Shown here piece by piece: positions 9,830 to 22,044 of a stretch of 32,000 bases of DNA (positions within the stretch are counted from its first letter, which is position 1; every line of letters begins with the position of its first letter). Source of the DNA: Dickeya dadantii NCPPB 898 (GTDB taxonomy: Bacteria > Pseudomonadota > Gammaproteobacteria > Enterobacterales > Enterobacteriaceae); NCBI RefSeq assembly GCF_000406145.1, contig NZ_CM001976.1, positions 163,186 through 195,185 on the forward strand, given 5' to 3'. The position numbers and the translations under genes were made by a program. Under the pieces are notes generated by a model, which was not told the DNA's origin, did no database searches, and saw only the letters and a list, made by a program, of their open reading frames with translations.

Positions 9830-10528
9830 TCATGCGGTGGAAACCATCAGATATCCTCTGCCGCGCAAGGTTTTAAACCAGGGCAGCCCATCCTTGCGCT
9901 CAGGTAATTTGCGCCGCAGGTTGGAGATATGCATGTCGATGGCGCGATCGAACGGCGTCAGGCGCTTGCCCAGCACTTCCTGGCTGAGGTGTTCGCGCGA
10001 TACCACCTGACCCAGACGCTGCGCCAGCAGATAGAGCAGCGTGAATTCGGTGCCGGTCAGATCCAGCACCTCATCGTCGAAGCTGGCTTCCTGACGGCCC
10101 GGATTAAGCCGCAGTGCATCCACCTCGATAGTCGGTGCGCTGGCTTCGCCTGCCTGTTGTTGGTCGGTCCAGTTGGAGCGACGCAGAATGGCGCGGATAC
10201 GGGCGACCAGCTCGCGATCGTTGAAGGGTTTAGGCAGATAGTCATCCGCGCCTAACTCCAGGCCGAGCACGCGGTCCAGCTCGCTGCCGCGGGCGGTAAG
10301 CATGATCACCGGCGTCTGGTAGCGCTGACGCACTTCCTTGAGTGTATCGATGCCGTTTTTCTTCGGCATCATGATATCCAGCAATAACAGGTCAACCGAA
10401 TCATCCAGCACGCTTAACGCCTGTTCGCCGTCATGGGCGACAACGACGTTAAAGCCTTCCATTTCGAGCAATTCCCGCAACAGGGATGTCAGCTCGCGAT
10501 CGTCATCAACCAACAGGATTTTATTCAT
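9830..10528 (-). CDS. cpxR: response regulator CpxR (OmpR family)
   Basis: MNKILLVDDDRELTSLLRELLEMEGFNV...DLLLLDIMMPKKNGIDTLK... and the winged-helix C-terminus are almost identical to E. coli CpxR. Confidence 0.95.
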   Translation of the reverse strand: MNKILLVDDDRELTSLLRELLEMEGFNVVVAHDGEQALSVLDDSVDLLLLDIMMPKKNGIDTLKEVRQRYQTPVIMLTARGSELDRVLGLELGADDYLPKPFNDRELVARIRAILRRSNWTDQQQAGEASAPTIEVDALRLNPGRQEASFDDEVLDLTGTEFTLLYLLAQRLGQVVSREHLSQEVLGKRLTPFDRAIDMHISNLRRKLPERKDGLPWFKTLRGRGYLMVSTA

Positions 10529-10597: not shown

Positions 10598-10738
10598 ATC
10601 GTCTGACGCATGTTTGCAGCAAGGCAATTAGACTAAGTCCATCGATTCGCCAAACAGTACACGTCACACCGTACGCAAACACAAGACGTACGTGAGTACA
10701 GTATGTGAATACAGTATGTGAACACAAAGGAGTCATTG

Positions 10739-11299
10739 ATGCGGGGCACCATCATCACGTTATCTTTTGCTTCACTGCTGATGTTGGTAACCGGCACCGT
10801 GGTGGCGACCGAAAACAGTTTACCCGGCGAAAATAATTTATCCGCCGAAAACAAGGCCCCCGAGTTGGGGAACTGTTATCGCGATGACTCTGCCATGAAA
10901 CGCGAAGAGAGTCAGCAGGGTATGTTTGACGGTGTGAAGTTGACTGAACATCAGCGCCAGCAAATGCGTGACCTGATGCGGCAAGTTCGCCATGAGCAAC
11001 CAGTCTATGACACAAACGATGTGGAAATTATGCATCGGCTGGTGACGGCGGAAAAATTCGACGCTCCGGCGGTGCAGGCGCAAGTCGCCAGAATGGTTCA
11101 GGCACAGATTGCGCGCCAGGTGGAGATAGCCCGGGTGAGCAACCAGATGTACAACATGCTGACGCCGGAGCAGAAATCGATTCTGGACCAGAAACATGAA
11201 CAGGCGATGCAGAGCGTGCGGCAGCAGATGTCGACGTCAGGATCACGTAGCCAGAATTTTGAACTGTCCCGTCAGGGGCAGGATGATAGTACTGAGTAA
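10739..11299 (+). CDS. cpxP: periplasmic Cpx pathway inhibitor/adaptor CpxP
   Basis: [27 protein letters not shown] and [10 protein letters not shown] are the two LTXXQ motifs. A signal peptide is present. An AGGAG RBS lies 7 nt upstream of ATG 10739; the track begins at the in-frame GTG 10718. Confidence 0.9.
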
Positions 11300-11574: not shown

Positions 11575-12558
11575 CTAAACCGCTATTTTCCCCCGTAATG
11601 GGTTGAGTGTTATAGCGTTTTGCAGATAGTCCGGTGCAAGATGCGCGTAAGTCATGGTTTGCTGAATGCTGGCATGACCTAAAATCTGCTGTAATGCCAC
11701 CAGATTTCCCCCGTTCATCACAAAATGACTGGCAAATGTGTGCCGCAGTATGTGTGATGCCTGGCCTTTCGGAATATCGGGCTTTACCGCTTTGATTTGC
11801 TCGCAAAATGCCGAGTAGTCCACTTTAAACAGCTTTCCGGTTTCGCGGGTTTTGATGATCCGCGTAACCTCTTCCGATATCGGAATGGTTCTGTTTTTAC
11901 CGTTCTTGGTTTCGGTAAACGTCACCCGGTTATGCATCACCTGTTCAGCCCGTAATGTGCTGGCTTCTCCCCACCTTGCGCCGGTGCTCAGGCACAGCAC
12001 AGCCAACCGGTACTGATCGTCTTCCATTGTATCCAGCAGGCGCGCAATCTCCGATTCCGTCAGGAAGGTGACTGTTGGCTGCTTTTCTGGCAATGGTGGC
12101 AATTCCTTTAAGGGATTCTCGCCAGTGTAGATCTCCAGCTTTATCAGTGCCGAAAACATTCCGGAAAGCCGATAGATGTCTCGGTTGACCGTTGAAGAGC
12201 TGATACCGTCGTATAATCGCCGGGTACGGAACTCCAGAATTGAGCGCTTGTTTATCCGGCATATCTCCGGGTCGTCCATCTGGGCCGCTGTCCGTTTCAG
12301 ATGACGCTTTTCTATCAAACCATTCTTCAAATTCTGGCCGTAGTAAAGCCACCACAATTCAACCAGTTCACTGAGCTGGCGATGTTCAACGCCATAACCG
12401 TGCTGCCACTCTTTTTTGTCCGCTCTGGACAGCGTGTAGCGTTCGAAGGCTACCGCTTCTGTCTTTTTTTCAAACCGCCGCCGGATGCGTTTTCCGTTAC
12501 GTCCGATCGGGCGAATGTCCACTTCATAGCGACCATCATCGAGTTTCTTAACTGCCAT
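11575..12558 (-). CDS. int: tyrosine integrase, P2 Int family
   Basis: MAVKKLDDGRYEVDIRPIGRNGKRIRRRFEKKTEAVAFERY is nearly identical to the P2 Int N-terminus. Catalytic motifs GARWGEA, HILRHTFASH and LGHASIQQTMTYAHL are present. The start is set at ATG 12558 (GGAGAG RBS), not the 12603 of the track. Confidence 0.9.
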   Translation of the reverse strand: MAVKKLDDGRYEVDIRPIGRNGKRIRRRFEKKTEAVAFERYTLSRADKKEWQHGYGVEHRQLSELVELWWLYYGQNLKNGLIEKRHLKRTAAQMDDPEICRINKRSILEFRTRRLYDGISSSTVNRDIYRLSGMFSALIKLEIYTGENPLKELPPLPEKQPTVTFLTESEIARLLDTMEDDQYRLAVLCLSTGARWGEASTLRAEQVMHNRVTFTETKNGKNRTIPISEEVTRIIKTRETGKLFKVDYSAFCEQIKAVKPDIPKGQASHILRHTFASHFVMNGGNLVALQQILGHASIQQTMTYAHLAPDYLQNAITLNPLRGKIAV

Positions 12559-12624
12559 AAGAACACTCTCCGATGTAGTCATCATCCTGATACGCAATAT
12601 CAAAGATGTAACTTATGTAAATAT

Positions 12625-12924
12625 TTACCCAATATTCTGGTTTGATTGGTGAGATTTTGTTTCGTCTGGCCCAATGTGTGCGAGGGCCGGTGCGATCTGA
12701 CCAGCTTCCGGTGCTGTTTTATCCGTCATCAACCACAGTGTGTATTTTTGGAACTGCTTTGTATTTGTTATTTGTAACACCACTTGCAGTCCAGGTTCCC
12801 TATGGCCGCCTTCGTAGTTTTTTAGAGTGCTTAACGCTATACCACTGATTTCACAAAATTTTATTTGTGTAAGTCCCTCAGCCTTTCTTATCAATTTGAT
12901 TTTTTGAGCTATATCCATTGACAT
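12625..12924 (-). CDS. C: immunity repressor, P2 C family
   Basis: MSMDIAQKIKLIRKAEGLTQ...FQKYTLWLMTDKTAPEAGQIAPALAHIGPDETKS aligns over its full length (99 aa) with P2 C as recalled. It lies upstream of and co-oriented with int. Confidence 0.85.
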   Translation of the reverse strand: MSMDIAQKIKLIRKAEGLTQIKFCEISGIALSTLKNYEGGHREPGLQVVLQITNTKQFQKYTLWLMTDKTAPEAGQIAPALAHIGPDETKSHQSNQNIG

Positions 12925-12950
12925 GGTTCCCATGTGAAGACTATATTCCA

Positions 12951-12982
12951 CTCAAAAGGTATTCAGTTGAAAACCTTTTGAG
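12951..12982. promoter_or_regulatory. perfect 9-bp inverted repeat CTCAAAAGG-N14-CCTTTTGAG just upstream of C
   Basis: Read directly. It begins 27 nt upstream of the C start codon, where the Pc/Pe switch is expected in P2-like phages. Confidence 0.4.
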
Positions 12983-13006
12983 GCGCGAAAAACCAACCGC
13001 GAACAT

Positions 13007-13036
13007 AAGCAACTGAAAGCAGATGTAAGCGGTTGG
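13007..13036. promoter_or_regulatory. three 10-bp-phased AAGC-initiated repeats (candidate Cox boxes at the switch region)
   Basis: aagcaactga | aagcagatgt | aagcggttgg. The first and third units match units of the att-arm array at 11491-11520 (aagcaactg, aagcggtt). Confidence 0.35.
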
Positions 13037-13178
13037 TGATCGAAAGAGAGTATCACGGTGAGGGGGAGAGGATGAAGGAAGACGATGTGCGGGAAGCTGA
13101 AGTTACAGCGGAATCACCCGTAATTAATACGTATGCCGTAACTCTTGAGATAAAGGCGAGGGTTAGCGAAGGCGCTAC

Positions 13179-13406
13179 TCAGACCCGCAGCGCCAGTACG
13201 TTCTTTTTTGTTGGATACACGAAAGAACAAATCATTGATTCATCTAAATGATGATTTAGTTGAGCAATCAGCTCGCGCGATTGATTGGCATTTAGCCGAA
13301 TCGCAACAATCTGGTCATCAGGAACAGAAAATTCAATCTCAATAAGATTATCAAAGGTATTGCAGCGCACTTTATAGGTGGGAATGACGGTACGTTTCTT
13401 TGTCAC
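13179..13406 (-). CDS. hypothetical small protein (75 aa from GTG 13406; 87 aa if from GTG 13442)
   Basis: ORF in the C-cox insert with an AAGGA RBS 7 nt before the internal GTG 13406. I recognise no motif. Its 3' end overlaps a convergent plus-strand ORF, so coding status is uncertain. Confidence 0.4.
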   Translation of the reverse strand: MTKKRTVIPTYKVRCNTFDNLIEIEFSVPDDQIVAIRLNANQSRELIAQLNHHLDESMICSFVYPTKKNVLALRV

Positions 13407-13450
13407 GTTATTTTCCTTGTGTGGTTGGTTGATTGTTGGCACTTGAAATC

Positions 13451-13493
13451 TACCACAAAAACCACGCGCCGGGCGTGGTGAAATATCCCGGCA
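13451..13493 (+). repeat. copy 1 of a ~40-bp direct repeat (TACCACA..CACGCGCCGGGCGTGG..AAATATCCCGGCA)
   Basis: taccacaaaaaccacgcgccgggcgtggtgaaatatcccggca contains the stem CCACGC/GCGTGG. On the minus strand the hairpin is followed by TTTTT. Confidence 0.9.
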
Positions 13494-13539
13494 TGAATTT
13501 AATTAAAATAGATAAATGGCTAATAGTTTCTGCGGGTGG

Positions 13540-14004
13540 TTAACGAGGGATGCCGCCGCAAAAGAAAGAAAATAGCTTTTCCATAGGCGTCAATTTGCTA
13601 TTAGCCGGAAGGCCAAGCATAACAGCTGCCCGATGATAGGCGGGGCCACATAGTGAATAGGGGTGTGGGCTATCGGTTTGTTCTATTACATACTTTTTCT
13701 GCTTAATGATTTCAATATCACTGGTGTCGAGATCATCAAGGAGAATTCGATATTTTTGTGCCTGCTGTTTCGCACCTCCGGTTATTTCTCCGGGCTTGAG
13801 TGTAAAAAGTAGCGCCGAAATGATTGCAATTAAGATGCCGAGCAACAAACCGGAACCGTGTTCAGTTACAACAGCGCTACCGAGGAAAAACTGAATAAGG
13901 CAGAGCAGCTTATCGATACGTCGATTAAAAACCTCTGTAATTTTTTCAAGCTGGTAACTATAGGCAAGTTCGAAACGAATATTGTGAATTTGTTGCTCGT
14001 TCAT
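13540..14004 (-). CDS. small two-TM membrane protein of unknown function (SLATT-like topology; possible exclusion/abortive-infection effector)
   Basis: An AGGAG RBS lies 5 nt upstream of ATG 14004. There are two adjacent hydrophobic helices (KLLCLIQFFLGSAVV and LLLGILIAIISALLF) flanked by amphipathic helices. The sequence is AT-richer than the phage backbone. Confidence 0.6.
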   Translation of the reverse strand: MNEQQIHNIRFELAYSYQLEKITEVFNRRIDKLLCLIQFFLGSAVVTEHGSGLLLGILIAIISALLFTLKPGEITGGAKQQAQKYRILLDDLDTSDIEIIKQKKYVIEQTDSPHPYSLCGPAYHRAAVMLGLPANSKLTPMEKLFSFFCGGIPR

Positions 14005-14180
14005 ATGGACTCCTGGCTATTGGTATCCGCCCTTCTTTGTAGGCTTCGGGGCGGGACGGGGTGGAACGTGAAAATTGTCGGTGTCCTGTTCTGCGGAAGA
14101 TGCAGTGCTAAGCATGATGACTCGTCCTCTGTAGTTGGTGTTATGCCCGTTCTGGCTGGAACGTGTGGGCGTAGCGAGGA

Positions 14181-14221
14181 TACCACAGCGCACGCGCCGG
14201 GCGTGGCTAAAAATCCCGGTA
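14181..14221 (+). repeat. copy 2 of the ~40-bp direct repeat, 38 nt upstream of cox
   Basis: taccacagcgcacgcgccgggcgtggctaaaaatcccggta. Confidence 0.9.
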
Positions 14222-14258
14222 CATATTCAATAACGCAAAATGAAAAGCGAGGGTTGTG

Positions 14259-14531
14259 ATGAGTGAACGCGTTTATGAGGTTCGCTATCCGGTTGATGCT
14301 GTTCCGTATCAGAAATTTGCGGAATTGATCGGTAAGTCGGAAGCGGCAGTGAAAGGCATGGTTGATAATGGAAAATTGCCGCTTATTCCGTGGGTGAATC
14401 CTGAAAACCCTAATCCTCGTCGCGGTGAAAATTGGGTTTATATCCCGGAATTTAACCGTGCTATGCGCGATGCCTTTATGAACAGGCCGAAAGAACAGCG
14501 TGACGCATGGTTATTATGGCTGGGGTTATAG
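14259..14531 (+). CDS. cox: Cox (excisionase / Pc repressor), P2 Cox family
   Basis: DAVPYQKFAELIGKSEAAVKGMVDNGKLPLI...GENWVYIPEFN...RPKEQRDAWLLWLGL aligns with P2 Cox (AIPYQEFAKLIGKSTGAVRRMIDKGKLPVI...EYWVYLPAWN...RPKEIRDGWLMWLGL). I used ATG 14259, with a GAGGG RBS. Confidence 0.85.
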   Translation: MSERVYEVRYPVDAVPYQKFAELIGKSEAAVKGMVDNGKLPLIPWVNPENPNPRRGENWVYIPEFNRAMRDAFMNRPKEQRDAWLLWLGL

Positions 14532-14782: not shown

Positions 14783-14814
14783 ACCACGGCCGGGCGTGGC
14801 TAAATATCCCGGCA
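14783..14814 (+). repeat. copy 3 of the direct repeat, 48 nt upstream of the next early ORF
   Basis: accacggccgggcgtggctaaatatcccggca. Confidence 0.9.
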
Positions 14815-15661: not shown

Positions 15662-15885
15662 TGGACTCAATGGACATAGCTCAAGAGCGCGAAACGTTCA
15701 TCCGCGAAACGCAAATCCAGAAGGCCCGGCAACAGTCGGGCTATGCCGTTTCTGCATCCGTCTGTGAAAGCTGTGACGCACCGCCCCCCGAAGCCCGCCG
15801 CGTGGCCGTTCCGGGTGTGCGTCTGTGCGTGTACTGCCAGGGTGATGCTGAACTGAAAAACAAACACTATCGGGGGGCTTTATGA
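15661..15885 (+). CDS. TraR/DksA-family C4 zinc-finger protein (P2 Orf82-like)
   Basis: CESC...(N19)...CVYC four-Cys motif near the C-terminus. The start overlaps the previous stop (TGATG). Confidence 0.75.
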   Translation: MDSMDIAQERETFIRETQIQKARQQSGYAVSASVCESCDAPPPEARRVAVPGVRLCVYCQGDAELKNKHYRGAL

Positions 15886-16718
15886 GCACTATCGCCACAC
15901 CGCTGAAATGGGTCGGCAGCAAGGCCCGCGTGATGCATATCCTGCGCGAGCATTTACCGGCCGGCGACCGTCTGGTGGAACCGTTCGCCGGGTCTTGTGC
16001 GGTCATGATGAATACCGATTACCCGGAATACCTGATCGCCGATATCAATCCCGACCTGATTAACCTGTATCAGGTCATCAAAGAGGATGTGAAGGATTTT
16101 ATTGATACCGCCGAAGGTCTGTTTCGCACTGCGAATACAGCAGAAAGCTATTACCGCTTCCGGCAGGTATTTAATCGTAGCAAAGAGAATCGCACCACCT
16201 CAGCAGCACTGTTTCTTTATCTGAACCGGCACGGTTACCGGGGCGTTTGTCGCTATAACCGCGCCGGTGGGTTTAACGTTCCTTACGGGCATTATGCATC
16301 GCCTTATTTTCCACTGGCCGAGATTCAGGCATTTGCCGAAAAAGCCCGCCGTGCAAAATTCATCTGCGCCGCGTTTGGCGAAACGCTGCAACTGATTCAC
16401 CCCGGCGATGTGGTGTACTGCGATCCGCCATACATCCCGCAAACGCCAACGGCCAGCTTCACCAGTTATCACACCGATGGTTTCACCCACAACGATCAGT
16501 ATGACCTGTGCAGCGCGTTATCACGCCTGGCCGAGCGCGGGATCCCTGTCATCGCATCAAACAGCGACACTCACCACGCGCACAGCCTTTACCACCGGTT
16601 TGATATCTGCCGCTTCACCGCACCGCGTAGCGTCGGCGTTGCGGCTGGGGAAAGCAAACAAGCTGGGGAAATTATTGCTAAGCGTCTGCCGGTGCATGGG
16701 CAGCGAGGTGCCGCATAA
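15882..16718 (+). CDS. dam: DNA N6-adenine methyltransferase (Dam family)
   Basis: PLKWVGSKARVM, the SAM motif VEPFAGSCAV and the catalytic DPPY (VVYCDPPYIP) are present. The start overlaps the upstream stop (ATGA). Confidence 0.9.
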   Translation: MSTIATPLKWVGSKARVMHILREHLPAGDRLVEPFAGSCAVMMNTDYPEYLIADINPDLINLYQVIKEDVKDFIDTAEGLFRTANTAESYYRFRQVFNRSKENRTTSAALFLYLNRHGYRGVCRYNRAGGFNVPYGHYASPYFPLAEIQAFAEKARRAKFICAAFGETLQLIHPGDVVYCDPPYIPQTPTASFTSYHTDGFTHNDQYDLCSALSRLAERGIPVIASNSDTHHAHSLYHRFDICRFTAPRSVGVAAGESKQAGEIIAKRLPVHGQRGAA

Positions 16719-17632
16719 TGAGGGCTATCGATCTCTTCGCTGGATTCGGCGGCTCATCAACCGGCGCGCGTATGGCAGGAGCGCATGTGGTATGGGCTGC
16801 TAATCACTGGCCCGCTGCCGTTGAATATCATCGTTTAAACCATCCCGATGCAATCCACGTTTGTCAGGACTTGCATCAGGCTGACTGGAGTTCTGTCCCG
16901 GCACATGACCTGATGATGGCTTCCCCTTGCTGCCAGGGGCATAGCCGGGCACGCGGAAAAACAGCGGGTGATCCGCAGCATGATGCGAGTCGCTCGACAG
17001 CGTGGGCTGTTGTGTCCGCAGCCGAATATCACAAGCCCTCAGCAGTGATTGTTGAGAATGTGCCTGAATTTCTAAATTGGGCGTTGTATCCAGCATGGGC
17101 GGCGGCAATGGCGGCGTTGGGTTATGCGTTATCGCCACATGTTGTTGATTGTGCCGATCTGGGTGTTCCTCAGAATCGCGTCCGATTGTTTCTGATCTGC
17201 ACTCGCAGTCGCTCCCCACTTTCGCTCGACCTGCCTCGCCTCAGTCACGTCCCTGCCACCACATTCATTGATTTTGATGACGGAAGATGGTCACAGATAA
17301 ACCGTCCGGGTCGTGCAATATCGACGCTAGCACGCATCGAAAACGGTCGCCGTCAGTTCGGTGAACGATTCATTTTCAGCTACTACGGAAATACAAAATC
17401 GGGCCGCTCAATTGACAGGCCGATAGGCACAATTACAACCCGCGATAGATGGGCAGTGGTGGATGGTGATCGTATGCGGATGGTGACAAAGCGCGAGGTA
17501 TTGGCCGCAATGTCTTTTTCGTCATCGTATATCACGCCAGACAGCCACCGCCTGACAGTCAATATGGCGGGTAATGCTGTACCCCCCGTTGCTATGTGCC
17601 GGGTTGTTGAGGCCATAGGGGGTTGTCTGTGA
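16718..17632 (+). CDS. DNA C5-cytosine methyltransferase
   Basis: Motif I DLFAGFGG, motif IV SPCCQGHS, motif VI ENVPEF, motif VIII QNRVRLF and motif X GNAVPP are present. The start overlaps the dam stop (TAATG). Confidence 0.9.
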   Translation: MRAIDLFAGFGGSSTGARMAGAHVVWAANHWPAAVEYHRLNHPDAIHVCQDLHQADWSSVPAHDLMMASPCCQGHSRARGKTAGDPQHDASRSTAWAVVSAAEYHKPSAVIVENVPEFLNWALYPAWAAAMAALGYALSPHVVDCADLGVPQNRVRLFLICTRSRSPLSLDLPRLSHVPATTFIDFDDGRWSQINRPGRAISTLARIENGRRQFGERFIFSYYGNTKSGRSIDRPIGTITTRDRWAVVDGDRMRMVTKREVLAAMSFSSSYITPDSHRLTVNMAGNAVPPVAMCRVVEAIGGCL

Positions 17633-19967: not shown

Positions 19968-20400
19968 TAATTTATTGAATGCTGGTGATATATTTGAATA
20001 GTATGATTATTTATTAAAAATATTAATATTATTTTTTAGTAAAAGTTAGCTGACTAAATAAAATGTTTATTTGATTATTACTGGTTAGGCAATCGACTGA
20101 TTTTGCGAGGACGTATGTAAGTAACTGAAAATATTAATATATTTTTATCTCAGTACTATGACTGGTAAGCAAGGAGCATGGAGTGTTGGGGGTGAGATAG
20201 AAGTACAGGGTACTCTTGTGGTTACTAAGTGAATGAGATCTGATGGTTCTTTGTTTTTCCCTTTGATTGTATACGTACCTTAGAACAAAAAAAGATGCGT
20301 TTTCGATCTTTTTTCCCTATAGTACGCACGATTTTTATGCCATAAATATAGGTAAGACATTATGGCATTTTGTTCACACACATGTAGTCTGGAGGCTCTC

Positions 20401-21399
20401 ATGAACGATACTAATCATATGAGAAGCATATATAATAAATTCCAAAGCGCTGGTTTCAACCTGTCGTACATCAGGAGCTTATTGCCTGAATGGTGGGATG
20501 AGCGATTGGCTGATACCCCTTCGGGGCGTCAGTACGCAAGCCTGCACTTGGCTCGAATGTTTAGTATTTTACCTGAAAGCCTTAAGGATGAGAGCGAAGG
20601 GATTTGTTTTAATTTTGGTGGAAATCATAAATTTAAGCATCGGAATAATGTTGCTGATGATGATTTAGATATAGCGACTGCAATTGCTTATACTGCTGCA
20701 AAAATTGTTGCATCGAATTTTAAAAAACCATATGACCCGCAGATAGTTCTAGATCCAGAACTAATCAGAAAAGATACGATGGAAAGTAATCCATGGGTTT
20801 CACTTGGGAATTTGGTTGAATATTGTCACTCAGTGGGAATTCCTGTTATATATCTTAAGAAATTCCCTCGTGGTGCTAAGAAAATGGCTGGTTTAGCTTT
20901 AATGAGTTGCGGAAGACCAGTAATTATATTAACCCAACCTCAAAAGTATGGGTATATGCTTTTTGATTTGGCGCATGAGTTGGGGCATATTGCGAAAGGG
21001 CATTTAAATGCTGAAAATGGACAATGTCATGTGGATGAGAAGATTGAGTCAGCCTCAACTAGTGATATTGAAAAAGAAGCTAATGAGTTTGCGTTTCAAG
21101 TCCTTTCTGGACAAAAATCTCTTCGCATTGTACCTACAGGACGCTTTTTAAAAGCGCCTCAACTGGCAAATGCGGCAAAAAAATTTGGCAGCGAAAGAGG
21201 TGTTGACCCTACCCATATTGCCTTGAATTACGGTTTTGTTATGGGACACTGGGGGGTGGCAGTAAATGCCGTGAAGGCTATTTGTAACGGACACCCCACC
21301 GATCAGAACTTCATCAAGGATATGATGAAAAAGGGAATAGATTTAGAAAGCATCAATGAAGATGATCTAAATATTCTGGAAAATCTTATCGGGGAATGA
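20401..21399 (+). CDS. ImmA/IrrE-family (COG2856, peptidase M78) zinc metallopeptidase with an uncharacterised N-terminal domain
   Basis: FDLAHELGHIAKGH (HEXXH at nt 20974-20988), the downstream EKEANEFAFQVL and the upstream GIPVIYLKKFP...GRPVIILT form the canonical ImmA/IrrE arrangement. A GGAGG RBS lies 5 nt before ATG 20401; the track ORF starts at ATG 20362. Confidence 0.8.
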   Translation: MNDTNHMRSIYNKFQSAGFNLSYIRSLLPEWWDERLADTPSGRQYASLHLARMFSILPESLKDESEGICFNFGGNHKFKHRNNVADDDLDIATAIAYTAAKIVASNFKKPYDPQIVLDPELIRKDTMESNPWVSLGNLVEYCHSVGIPVIYLKKFPRGAKKMAGLALMSCGRPVIILTQPQKYGYMLFDLAHELGHIAKGHLNAENGQCHVDEKIESASTSDIEKEANEFAFQVLSGQKSLRIVPTGRFLKAPQLANAAKKFGSERGVDPTHIALNYGFVMGHWGVAVNAVKAICNGHPTDQNFIKDMMKKGIDLESINEDDLNILENLIGE

Positions 21400-21402
21400 T
21401 AC

Positions 21403-22044
21403 GTGATTGTTCTTTCTGACAATGATGTCATATTGAAGTTAGCTCAATGTAATCTACTATCACAATTATCTACGATATTAAATGAGCAACCTGATCAAAT
21501 TTTCATTAACCCAGCAGCTAGGTACCAGCTGCTTCCTGATAATCCAGATAAAGCAATTCGAAAGTGTGGAAGTCAGCAAATATATGAACAGCTGGGGGCT
21601 TTCATTGAATCGGTAAATGATGTTCCTGAAATTATGAATCTTTCCCTTTTGGAATTATTGGGTGATGTGCCTAATATAGACGTGGGTGAGCAATTTTTGC
21701 TTGCTTCCTGTATTGAGAATCCAGATGCGATATTTATGACGGGTGATCGTAGATGCCTATCTGCAATTATTTCGAATAAAGCCACTCTGGCTACTATTCA
21801 TCAGCGTCTAATTGATGCCGTCGTTACATTTGAATCATCACTACTATTATGTGTTCATGGCTCAACGGTTGCTCATGTTCATAGTCAGCTGATGGGTAAT
21901 CCGAAACCGGATGTTGTACTTAGGATGGCCCTTGCTAATTCTGGTAGTGCCATGTGTGAATGTTTATTTTCTTACACTCGTGATTTTTATGAATACCTTG
22001 CTTTTAAAGATAGGTTACCAGATAGGGAGTGGGGTCTGCAGTAA
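21403..22044 (+). CDS. hypothetical protein, possible PIN-like nuclease; translationally coupled to the peptidase gene
   Basis: The GTG start is 3 nt after the upstream TGA. The N-terminal IVLSDNDVILKL, then DVGEQFLLASC, then IFMTGDRRCL, then LIDAVV give an acidic-residue order reminiscent of PIN-like folds. The call as a CDS is fairly safe, but the fold call is weak. Confidence 0.5.
   Translation: MIVLSDNDVILKLAQCNLLSQLSTILNEQPDQIFINPAARYQLLPDNPDKAIRKCGSQQIYEQLGAFIESVNDVPEIMNLSLLELLGDVPNIDVGEQFLLASCIENPDAIFMTGDRRCLSAIISNKATLATIHQRLIDAVVTFESSLLLCVHGSTVAHVHSQLMGNPKPDVVLRMALANSGSAMCECLFSYTRDFYEYLAFKDRLPDREWGLQ

Follow-up and report, generated by a model that had tools for sequence, protein, structure and literature searches.

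In the 32,000-nt stretch of Dickeya dadantii NCPPB 898 DNA analyzed here (the window, whose positions serve as coordinates throughout), a P2-like prophage was found in which the immunity repressor gene C and the divergent gene cox are separated by 1.33 kb, as against ~120–215 nt in canonical relatives. The predicted switch promoters stand together next to C, and a variable bay (13077–14164) lies between the candidate repressor promoter Pc and cox. This bay contains one 59-amino-acid (aa) sense open reading frame (ORF) and two tandem antisense cassettes. Judged by sequence comparison, the gap is a swappable, lineage-specific cargo slot; it lies between Pc and cox, and therefore inside the 5′ end of the early operon. 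The interpretation that we favor, and consider somewhat likelier to hold than to fail, is that of an intact switch carrying a bay of mobile antisense cassettes, which would be expressed only in the lysogen and would encode a membrane exclusion or abortive-infection effector.

The prophage is located beyond cpxP on a Dickeya-type chromosome. cpxR (9830–10528, minus strand) and cpxP (10718–11299, plus strand) belong to the host flank, and the prophage begins after cpxP, with int (11575–12603, minus strand; matches to Int_N and Phage_integrase) downstream of C. The 99-aa P2-type repressor C (12625–12924, minus strand) matched phrog_147 (1e-40) and HTH_3 (3e-7); its start was placed at 12924 because the family match begins at residue 10 of the long ORF (12625–12951, minus strand). 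Cox (91 aa; 14256–14531, plus strand, start at 14256 or 14259) matched PF10743 (7e-26) and phrog_272 (2e-42), and is followed rightward by two DNA methylases, gpA, and then Q, P, and the remaining late genes. The locus thus has the composition of a P2-type switch, with a C-family repressor divergent from a Cox-family protein and int downstream of C, and the positions assigned to the C start (12924) and the Cox start (14259) in an initial annotation of this DNA, as well as the 1.33 kb between them, hold. From C through cox, the window spans 1884 nt, as compared with ~680–700 nt in all P2-like phage records listed. The gap has a G+C content of 0.456, lower than that of the prophage (0.542) and of the host flank (0.594); it is indeed AT-richer than the backbone, as had been noted, though near int and C (0.476).

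The initial annotation had interpreted this layout as a C/cox switch split by an insert. That interpretation was not supported by the position of both predicted promoters. The predicted early promoter Pe (TTGACA-18-TATATT, 11/12 consensus positions; 12918–12947, plus strand) overlaps the C start codon with its −35 box, and a Pe in the same place, again with an overlapping −35, was found in all 14 loci examined, whose gaps range from 120 nt to 3 kb. In the phage WPhi record, Pe is annotated at the equivalent position and Pc at 117–153 nt from C, abutting cox; projected onto the window, this distance corresponds to 13041–13077. A candidate Pc with the extended −10 TGaTACTCT (13047–13055, minus strand) matches that position, and canonical loci carry TGnTAACCT at the equivalent spot, abutting the cox start. 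The block next to C (12925–13076, 152 nt) is homologous to that of the closest relative, L006, and homology stops at 13076. Since this conserved block holds both Pe and the Pc-like motif, the insert lies beyond both predicted promoters, and the one part displaced is the cox ORF, by ~1.2 kb from the candidate Pc. Pe, the Pc-like element, and the operator region are thus predicted to be intact beside C, and the switch undivided. In canonical switches, Pe abuts C and Pc abuts cox within ~100–150 nt; here, Pe abuts C, the Pc-like motif is at 13047–13055, and cox is 1.2 kb beyond. In each long-gap locus, the first plus-strand ORF begins where the canonical cox begins.

Two structures lie within the conserved block. 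Immediately beyond the Pe −10, a 15-nt inverted repeat that is nearly perfect (12951–12982, 93% complementary) is a candidate operator or leader structure. A conserved leader stem-loop (12992–13037, −24.7 kcal/mol), which reads on the minus strand as a hairpin plus T-run (12993–13016), is part of the early leader as well as of the C mRNA leader. Because the native C mRNA contains it, strong termination there is unlikely; its candidate role as a strong terminator shielding the switch was rejected on that basis, and because the hairpin is also present in short-gap phages. Among the Cox-related loci, P2-like phages with short and with long gaps keep the structure of this stem but not its sequence.

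The content of the gap varies between otherwise homologous prophages. L006, which is integrated at the same cpxP site, is 89% identical to the window up to 13076 and 95% identical from 14165 onward, with an unrelated 657 nt in place of the bay. A survey with the window Cox retrieved 15 loci, all of which encode a C homolog. The C–cox gap is 121–216 nt in 10 of them (from Acerihabitans, Photorhabdus, Xenorhabdus, Citrobacter, Providencia, and Serratia) and 900–3069 nt in the other 5, with differing contents. The long-gap loci come from Symbiopectobacterium and two Brenneria species, which are the three closest, and from a Dickeya-type genome and Trabulsiella; one Brenneria locus encodes a homolog, 37% identical, of the two-transmembrane (2-TM) protein described below, in the same place and orientation as in the window. 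The comparison of C–cox spacing suggested in the initial annotation thus showed a polymorphism (10 short versus 5 long gaps), and the view of the segment as accessory cargo was supported: it is unrelated in L006, it differs among the long gaps, and the 2-TM cassette is found elsewhere in a Dickeya zeae prophage (L003). As expected of a moron or accessory cassette, it is replaced or missing between otherwise homologous phages, as seen in L006, in L003, and across the 15 loci.

That the interval might instead be a conserved core regulatory region, with ORFs of the CII or Apl type, has in its favor that all the closest Cox relatives (Dickeya, Symbiopectobacterium, and Brenneria) are long-gapped. 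We regard it as very improbable: the gap content is unrelated between the closest relatives, the 2-TM gene and the 75-aa gene of the other cassette are also found elsewhere in the genome and in different kinds of phage, and a DNA-binding domain match was obtained for none of the ORFs. A megablast of the gap against E. coli genomes returned no match, an Rfam search of the region and four related loci returned no known RNA family, and Pfam, NCBIfam, and PADLOC scans of the bay ORFs gave no informative match. Two of the surveyed loci have particular contents. The bay of Brenneria rubrifaciens (L009, 1932–5000) holds an IS21-family insertion (istA, istB) and, behind the hairpin element described below, a gene of ~150 aa whose cargo family is also present in at least six IMG/VR prophages. 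In Xenorhabdus yunnanensis (L012, 4040–4782), two tandem C-repressor homologs are found upstream of cox.

Both cassettes begin with the same element, which the initial annotation had missed. It was detected as a 41-nt repeat (13463–13503 and 14191–14231), for which zero matches are expected in shuffled sequence. Along the minus strand, CCGGG is separated by a few bases from a GC hairpin (CCACGC-CCGGC-GCGTGG), which is followed, usually after a short T-run, by TGGTAnnnT. Copy 1 (13447–13503, minus strand) has a hairpin and T-run at 13461–13479 followed by TGGTAGATT (13447–13455), the predicted promoter of cassette A; copy 2 (14177–14231, minus strand), which abuts the cox start, has a hairpin at 14191–14205 followed by TGGTATCCT (14177–14185), the predicted promoter of cassette B. 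Across the fetched loci, TGnTAnnnT lies 4–6 nt after the hairpin in 12 of the 14 pattern-matched copies, and the two copies lacking it, which are the homologs of a third copy in the window, are not followed by an antisense gene. Compensatory changes preserve the stem, which reads CCACGC/GCGTGG, CCATGC/GCATGG (six loci), or CCCGC/GCGGG (a Mu-like phage). The point at which L006 is exchanged (14164/14165) is just downstream of the −10, and the promoter unit is therefore retained while the 5′ untranslated region (UTR) and the ORF are exchanged. We read the element as a putative upstream insulator or terminator joined to a promoter that would need no −35. Cassette B would be driven by copy 2, and copy 1 would both terminate cassette B, through its hairpin and TTTTTGTGG, and drive cassette A. 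The evidence that a cassette has its own promoter and terminator, as a moron should, consists here of motifs: TGnTAnnnT in 12 of 14 copies, and the hairpin with T-run at 13461–13479.

The third copy (14784–14812, minus strand) has the hairpin without TGnTAnnnT and is not followed by an antisense gene. It sits between a 68-aa early ORF and the next early ORF, has a counterpart in L006, and may mark either a vacant docking site or the remains of a cassette since lost. A reading of the element as a plus-strand promoter for cox was rejected, as no −10/−35 fits. A second inverted repeat, GTTATGCC...GGCATAAC (14140–14172), is found in the 5′ UTR just after the cassette promoter in many loci (L002, L024, L030, and L031); in the window, it pairs with G–U wobbles on the plus-strand RNA only.

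An exact-pattern scan of IMG/VR for the element gave 63 instances on 61 contigs, mostly of P2-phage size. Relative to the cargo sense, Int (45/45) and C (39/39) are always on the same strand, and GpA (38/38) and Cox (20/20) always on the other one. The shared direction with C and int, which had been pointed out for the two minus-strand genes of the window, is therefore a strict rule for element cassettes. Sixteen instances had both C and Cox homologs. Ten of these had a C–cox gap of 904–1544 nt with the element 57–58 nt from the cox start, as in the window; in the remaining six, the gap was short and the element lay ~1 kb farther along the early operon. Clustering of the first ORFs behind the element gave 22 groups, and a gene of the 2-TM family follows in 11 instances. 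The layout had been thought unusual in the initial annotation, a view tempered by the 10 of 16 IMG/VR prophages with the element, C, and Cox in this arrangement and by Salmonella phages SEN4 and SEN5, which, like Yersinia phage vB_YpM_115, share the expanded layout. Since SEN4 and SEN5 form plaques (PMC5261728) with the same architecture, the layout is compatible with a working phage.

These data bear on a different explanation of the cassettes, according to which antisense transcription itself, and not the products, would damp leaky expression from Pe to cox and so stabilize lysogeny. The convergent geometry recalls Pe/Pc as well as pR/pL of coliphage 186, and the fixed distance of 57–58 nt between the element and cox in 10 prophages would suit such a function. 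We nevertheless hold this explanation to be improbable, as the protein sequences are under purifying selection, ~22 cargo families share one element, and the cassettes are also present ~1 kb farther into the operon.

Cassette B encodes the 2-TM protein, and the properties first ascribed to this gene were confirmed from the sequence and by hydropathy: it is a minus-strand gene (13540–14004) with AGGAG 5 nt before the ATG, and its 154-aa product has two adjacent hydrophobic helices (~30–48 and 50–70). The gene is part of a mobile module (13545–14232, minus strand; 689 nt in L003) that is 95% identical to a module of the Dickeya zeae prophage, where it sits after the first early gene and beside a different repressor. 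The module is flanked by two copies of the element. Of the 15 substitutions that separate the 154-aa ORFs of the window and L003, 12 affect the third codon position and none the second; the protein is under purifying selection. It matched phrog_6315, of unknown function (5.3e-34; residues 7–154 against positions 5–152 of the 152-position profile), and the family comprises 124 clusters at 50% identity, with members nearly all 150–165 aa long. The AlphaFold2 model is confident (mean predicted local distance difference test score, pLDDT, 93.9; predicted template modeling score 0.86) and has helices at 3–46, 52–69, and 71–91 followed by three C-terminal helices. Two adjacent transmembrane helices with flanking cytoplasmic helices, as in SLATT domains, are thus found by hydropathy and in the model.

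In contrast, Pfam SLATT/DUF4231 matched neither the protein, nor 67 of 68 family members, nor the family consensus, the one remaining member giving DUF4231 at E = 0.097. The earlier description of the protein as SLATT-like thus finds support at the level of the predicted fold (BFVD matches and AlphaFold2 model), and not from a Pfam match or a signaling-partner gene. By fold, the protein may be of the SLATT type, and it is at most a candidate member of the SLATT family. At E ≤ 1, PADLOC v2 gave no match for the 59-aa, 87-aa, 154-aa, and 61-aa (14001–14186) ORFs, a search from which the 32-aa ORF frame was left out, and a search of IMG/VR with the 154-aa protein gave none.

The 2-TM protein is not encoded alone. 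A 32-aa proline-rich ORF (MLSTASSAEQDTDNFHVPPRPAPKPTKKGGYQ; 14017–14115, minus strand), also missed initially, precedes it with a GAGGA ribosome-binding site (RBS) and a stop codon 12 nt before the 2-TM ATG. A homologous proline-rich ORF of 23–48 aa precedes the 2-TM gene in 12 of 13 contexts, which span proteins only 25–45% identical, and the conserved unit is therefore a two-gene operon. The small ORFs share the motif D-x-D-N-F-H-V-x-x-[KR]-P-A-P-x-P followed by a charged tail. Their stop is 4–22 nt from the 2-TM start, and in most loci the Shine–Dalgarno sequence lies within their 3′ end. The features expected of a leader peptide, a short ORF with a conserved proline-rich motif near a downstream RBS, are thus present. 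Consecutive prolines are absent from the Fels-2 and L026 versions, which disfavors a simple polyproline stall.

In all 11 phage contexts examined, the 2-TM pair is antisense to the flanking lytic genes. The P2- or 186-like contexts are the window, L003, L008, Fels-2/E. coli NC101, Yersinia phage YenM_42.18, L022, L023, and L024; L025 and L026 are lambdoid, with the pair opposing pL-side genes; and L028 is Mu-like. Antisense homologs extend to Vibrio-type prophages. A module of the Fels-2 type is present in 40 of 5426 complete E. coli genomes, annotated as "hypothetical protein", and a literature search by Fels-2 locus tags found nothing. The deposited ORF STM2733.1 of Fels-2 (L001, NC_010463, 30253–30798) and the deposited 221-aa gp08 of Yersinia phage vB_YenM_42.18 (L002) are on the strand opposite to the pair, and are probably mis-annotations. 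A 2-TM homolog with its small ORF was also found outside any obvious prophage (L029, 342–1834), in surroundings that resemble a defense island: an Nmad2-domain gene and a restriction gene of the DpnII/MboI type are its neighbors.

Cassette A encodes a second small protein. The ORF recognized initially on the minus strand (13179–13406/13442) exists, and reads 87 aa from the upstream start (13179–13442). The start is most likely the GTG at 13406, giving 75 aa (13179–13406, minus strand), because this codon has an AAGGA RBS, homologs of 57–65 aa align there, and the predicted transcription start is at ~13440. Two homologs from Dickeya ananatis, P0128 and P0129 (57 and 69 aa), are 98% and 96% identical. 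The 65-aa homolog P0130, 63% identical, again opposes the early operon of a 186-like phage and is preceded by the same element and by a 5′ UTR hairpin. This conservation marks the ORF as belonging to a real small-protein family. The 75-aa protein departs from its relatives after ...NHHL, exactly at the stop of the plus-strand ORF, and the non-native 20-aa C-terminal tail and the 73-nt overlap between the two ORFs are therefore by-products of a recombination joint. Structure modeling, which succeeded for the 154-aa protein, was unusable for the 75-aa one (pLDDT 52). A tblastn search of phage records with the 87-aa and a 72-aa ORF gave no match, and exact look-ups of the C protein and the 87-aa ORF showed that neither is on record.

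The plus-strand ORF (13072–13251) is also real as a reading frame and overlaps the minus-strand ORF by 73 nt, as first described. It is the first sense ORF after Pe, encodes 59 aa, and lies at the canonical cox-start position; no homolog was found for this putative ORFan, and relatives have unrelated first ORFs at that place. A designed 73-nt convergent overlap was rejected, as it coincides with the recombination junction. A second plus-strand ORF (133 aa, 13858–14259) runs antisense to cassette B, and its terminal TGATG overlaps the cox start, an arrangement that resembles translational coupling. It was rejected as a gene and is probably not coding: the substitutions relative to L003 (14/5/6 at codon positions 1/2/3) only mirror the minus-strand frame.

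These ORFs are what would speak for the interval being recombination debris with chance ORFs, since the 59-aa frame has no homolog, the C-terminus of the 75-aa gene is scrambled, and the 133-aa frame lacks a coding signature. Such an origin is hardly credible for the segment, given that the 2-TM gene, the small proline-rich ORF, and the core of the 75-aa gene are conserved across distant genomes, and the promoter element in 63 instances.

The favored interpretation, an intact switch with a bay of lysogen-expressed cargo, proposes the following sequence of events. The anatomy of the bay, its polymorphism and mobility, the orientation rule, the purifying selection, and the predicted fold are observed here; promoter activity, the timing of expression, and function are what the interpretation adds. 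Cassettes would pass between temperate phages by recombination at the shared element. In the lysogen, C would silence Pe, and the leftward cassette promoters would be free to fire. Upon induction or infection, transcription from Pe would cross both cassettes head-on on its way to cox; it would have to read through them, because no plus-strand promoter or terminator was predicted within 12948–14259 by a promoter and terminator scan. This read-through would silence the cassettes by collision, occlusion, and antisense pairing, and cargo expression would hence be confined to the lysogen. The 32-aa peptide would be translationally coupled to the 154-aa inner-membrane 2-TM protein, a presumptive membrane-acting exclusion or abortive-infection effector whose production would be gated by the upstream peptide. 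Lysogen-only expression would suit a membrane-damaging effector, which has to remain inactive while the phage itself grows lytically. Cassette transcripts that continue toward Pc, C, and int could, in addition, contribute to repressor transcription.

Several points weigh against this interpretation. The element promoters are consensus matches without a −35, unflagged by a generic sigma-70 scan, and cox could have its own, undetected promoter. Copy 2 and Fels-2 lack a T-run behind the hairpin, and a terminator role cannot therefore apply to every copy. The 63 IMG/VR instances are related prophages and do not represent independent samples. As for the protein, the best BFVD fold matches are mostly SLATT-annotated, with a probability of ~1 for most, but weak (E-values of 7e-3 to 0.3, TM-scores of 0.5–0.65); the 2-TM family has no match in Pfam, NCBIfam, or PADLOC, even by family consensus; a PDB profile search and Foldseek against PDB returned no match; and a SMODS, SLOG, TIR, or other signaling-enzyme neighbor was present in 0 of 13 contexts. 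The Mu-like context (L028), finally, lacks the small proline-rich ORF.

The lack of a match to PADLOC defense models would also fit a cargo that is expressed in the lysogen and is not anti-phage. The 2-TM module could then be an addiction or toxin-like maintenance system, a modulator of membrane stress or persistence, or a brake on induction. Small prophage membrane proteins have many roles, and the cassette promoters face Pc, C, and int, where read-through could add Cox-insensitive repressor transcription. We consider such a role unlikely: the module is strictly antisense in the lytic operons of unrelated phage types (P2-, 186-, lambda-, and Mu-like), as fits a product that has to be off during lytic growth, SLATT-like folds are reportedly typical of suicide effectors, and one homolog lies beside a restriction enzyme and an Nmad2 gene.

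The favored interpretation could be broadened beyond the window, and this we suggest only tentatively. P2-like and related temperate phages would share an insulated antisense cassette system, in which the element would serve as both recombination joint and promoter, and the pair formed by the small ORF and the SLATT-like protein as a new two-component, leader-gated membrane effector that would abort or exclude competing phages. Many small cargo genes would be docked, stacked, and swapped inside early lytic operons, with convergent transcription giving lysogen-only expression. We consider this broader proposal possible but rather unlikely.

The prophage carries further accessory genes. The hotspot between gpA and Q (20362–22044) contains two genes, a candidate defense pair from their sequences: the first encodes a 345-aa Peptidase_M78/ImmA-like protein (Pfam, 5.8e-6; PADLOC PD-Lambda-2_B, 2e-10; weak RmrA and CapP matches) and the second a 213-aa protein without a match. 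The two adjacent DNA methyltransferase genes of the early operon (15882–17632) are a Dam-like MethyltransfD12 gene and one that, by its motifs, is of the cytosine-5 type. L006 has only the first, Dam-like gene, and its homology to the window resumes after the second.

Prophage cargo is usually sought at operon ends or between modules; here, it is on the opposite strand inside the early operon. Annotation often overlooks small antisense cargo genes of this kind or assigns them to the wrong strand, Fels-2 and vB_YenM_42.18 being examples. The element provides a search handle for unknown small proteins, having given 22 clusters from 61 contigs, and since homologs of the small ORF and the 2-TM gene are present in Salmonella LT2 (Fels-2) and E. 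coli NC101, their function is directly testable. If convergent transcription does tie cargo to lysogeny, it would be a simple design rule and a compact natural "off when lytic" switch. In the searchable literature, we did not find a description of a fixed slot between Pc and cox, of a hairpin-plus-extended −10 unit common to many cargo genes, of the strict antisense rule, or of the pairing of the small ORF with the 2-TM gene.

The locus can be compared with several known systems. Like the P2 and WPhi switches, it has a C-type repressor, Cox, int downstream of C, a Pe −35 over the C start, and a Pc-like −10 ~125 nt away. Unlike in those phages, where Pc abuts cox across a gap of ~100–150 nt, ~1.2 kb of cargo intervenes and cox is no longer the first early gene; C–cox spacers of variable size have been noted by Nilsson et al. 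(PMC3448106). The described P2 hotspots are tin/old between A and Q, Z/fun in the tail genes, and a minor "integrase-primase" region (PMC9122126, PMC13586616). The bay resembles them in that variable accessory genes occupy a fixed slot, and the window prophage also has cargo between A and Q; it differs in its position inside the early operon between Pc and cox, in its very small genes, and in the lack of a defense-model match.

Lambdoid morons are reportedly extra genes with their own promoter and terminator (Juhala, Hendrix and colleagues, 2000). The cassettes resemble them in being present or absent between homologous genomes, in having their own predicted promoter and terminator, and in their lower G+C content. 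They differ in being always antisense to the lytic operon, in the use of one shared element for many cargo genes, and in tandem stacking. The SLATT-domain 2-TM effectors, said by Burroughs and colleagues in 2015 to be typically suicide effectors, likewise have a central 2-TM hairpin flanked by helices, and the best structural matches of the window protein are SLATT-annotated; the latter, in contrast, has neither a SLATT Pfam match nor a SMODS, SLOG, or TIR partner, and is paired with a proline-rich small ORF.

Two further parallels concern expression. The sieB gene of P22 and lambda is a prophage-expressed membrane abortive-infection gene inside the early-left operon. Cassette B resembles it in that a gene for a small membrane protein lies within an early lytic operon and is presumably expressed from its own promoter in the lysogen; there is no sequence similarity between the two, the PHROG matches of the 2-TM protein are only to families of unknown function, and sieB is co-directional with pL, whereas the 2-TM family is antisense. 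In coliphage 186, Callen and colleagues (2004) are said to have described transcriptional interference between the convergent promoters pR and pL. A strong lytic promoter firing across a weaker opposing one is also the shut-off that we propose for the cargo, with the difference that the opposing promoters of the window would control accessory genes rather than the repressor.

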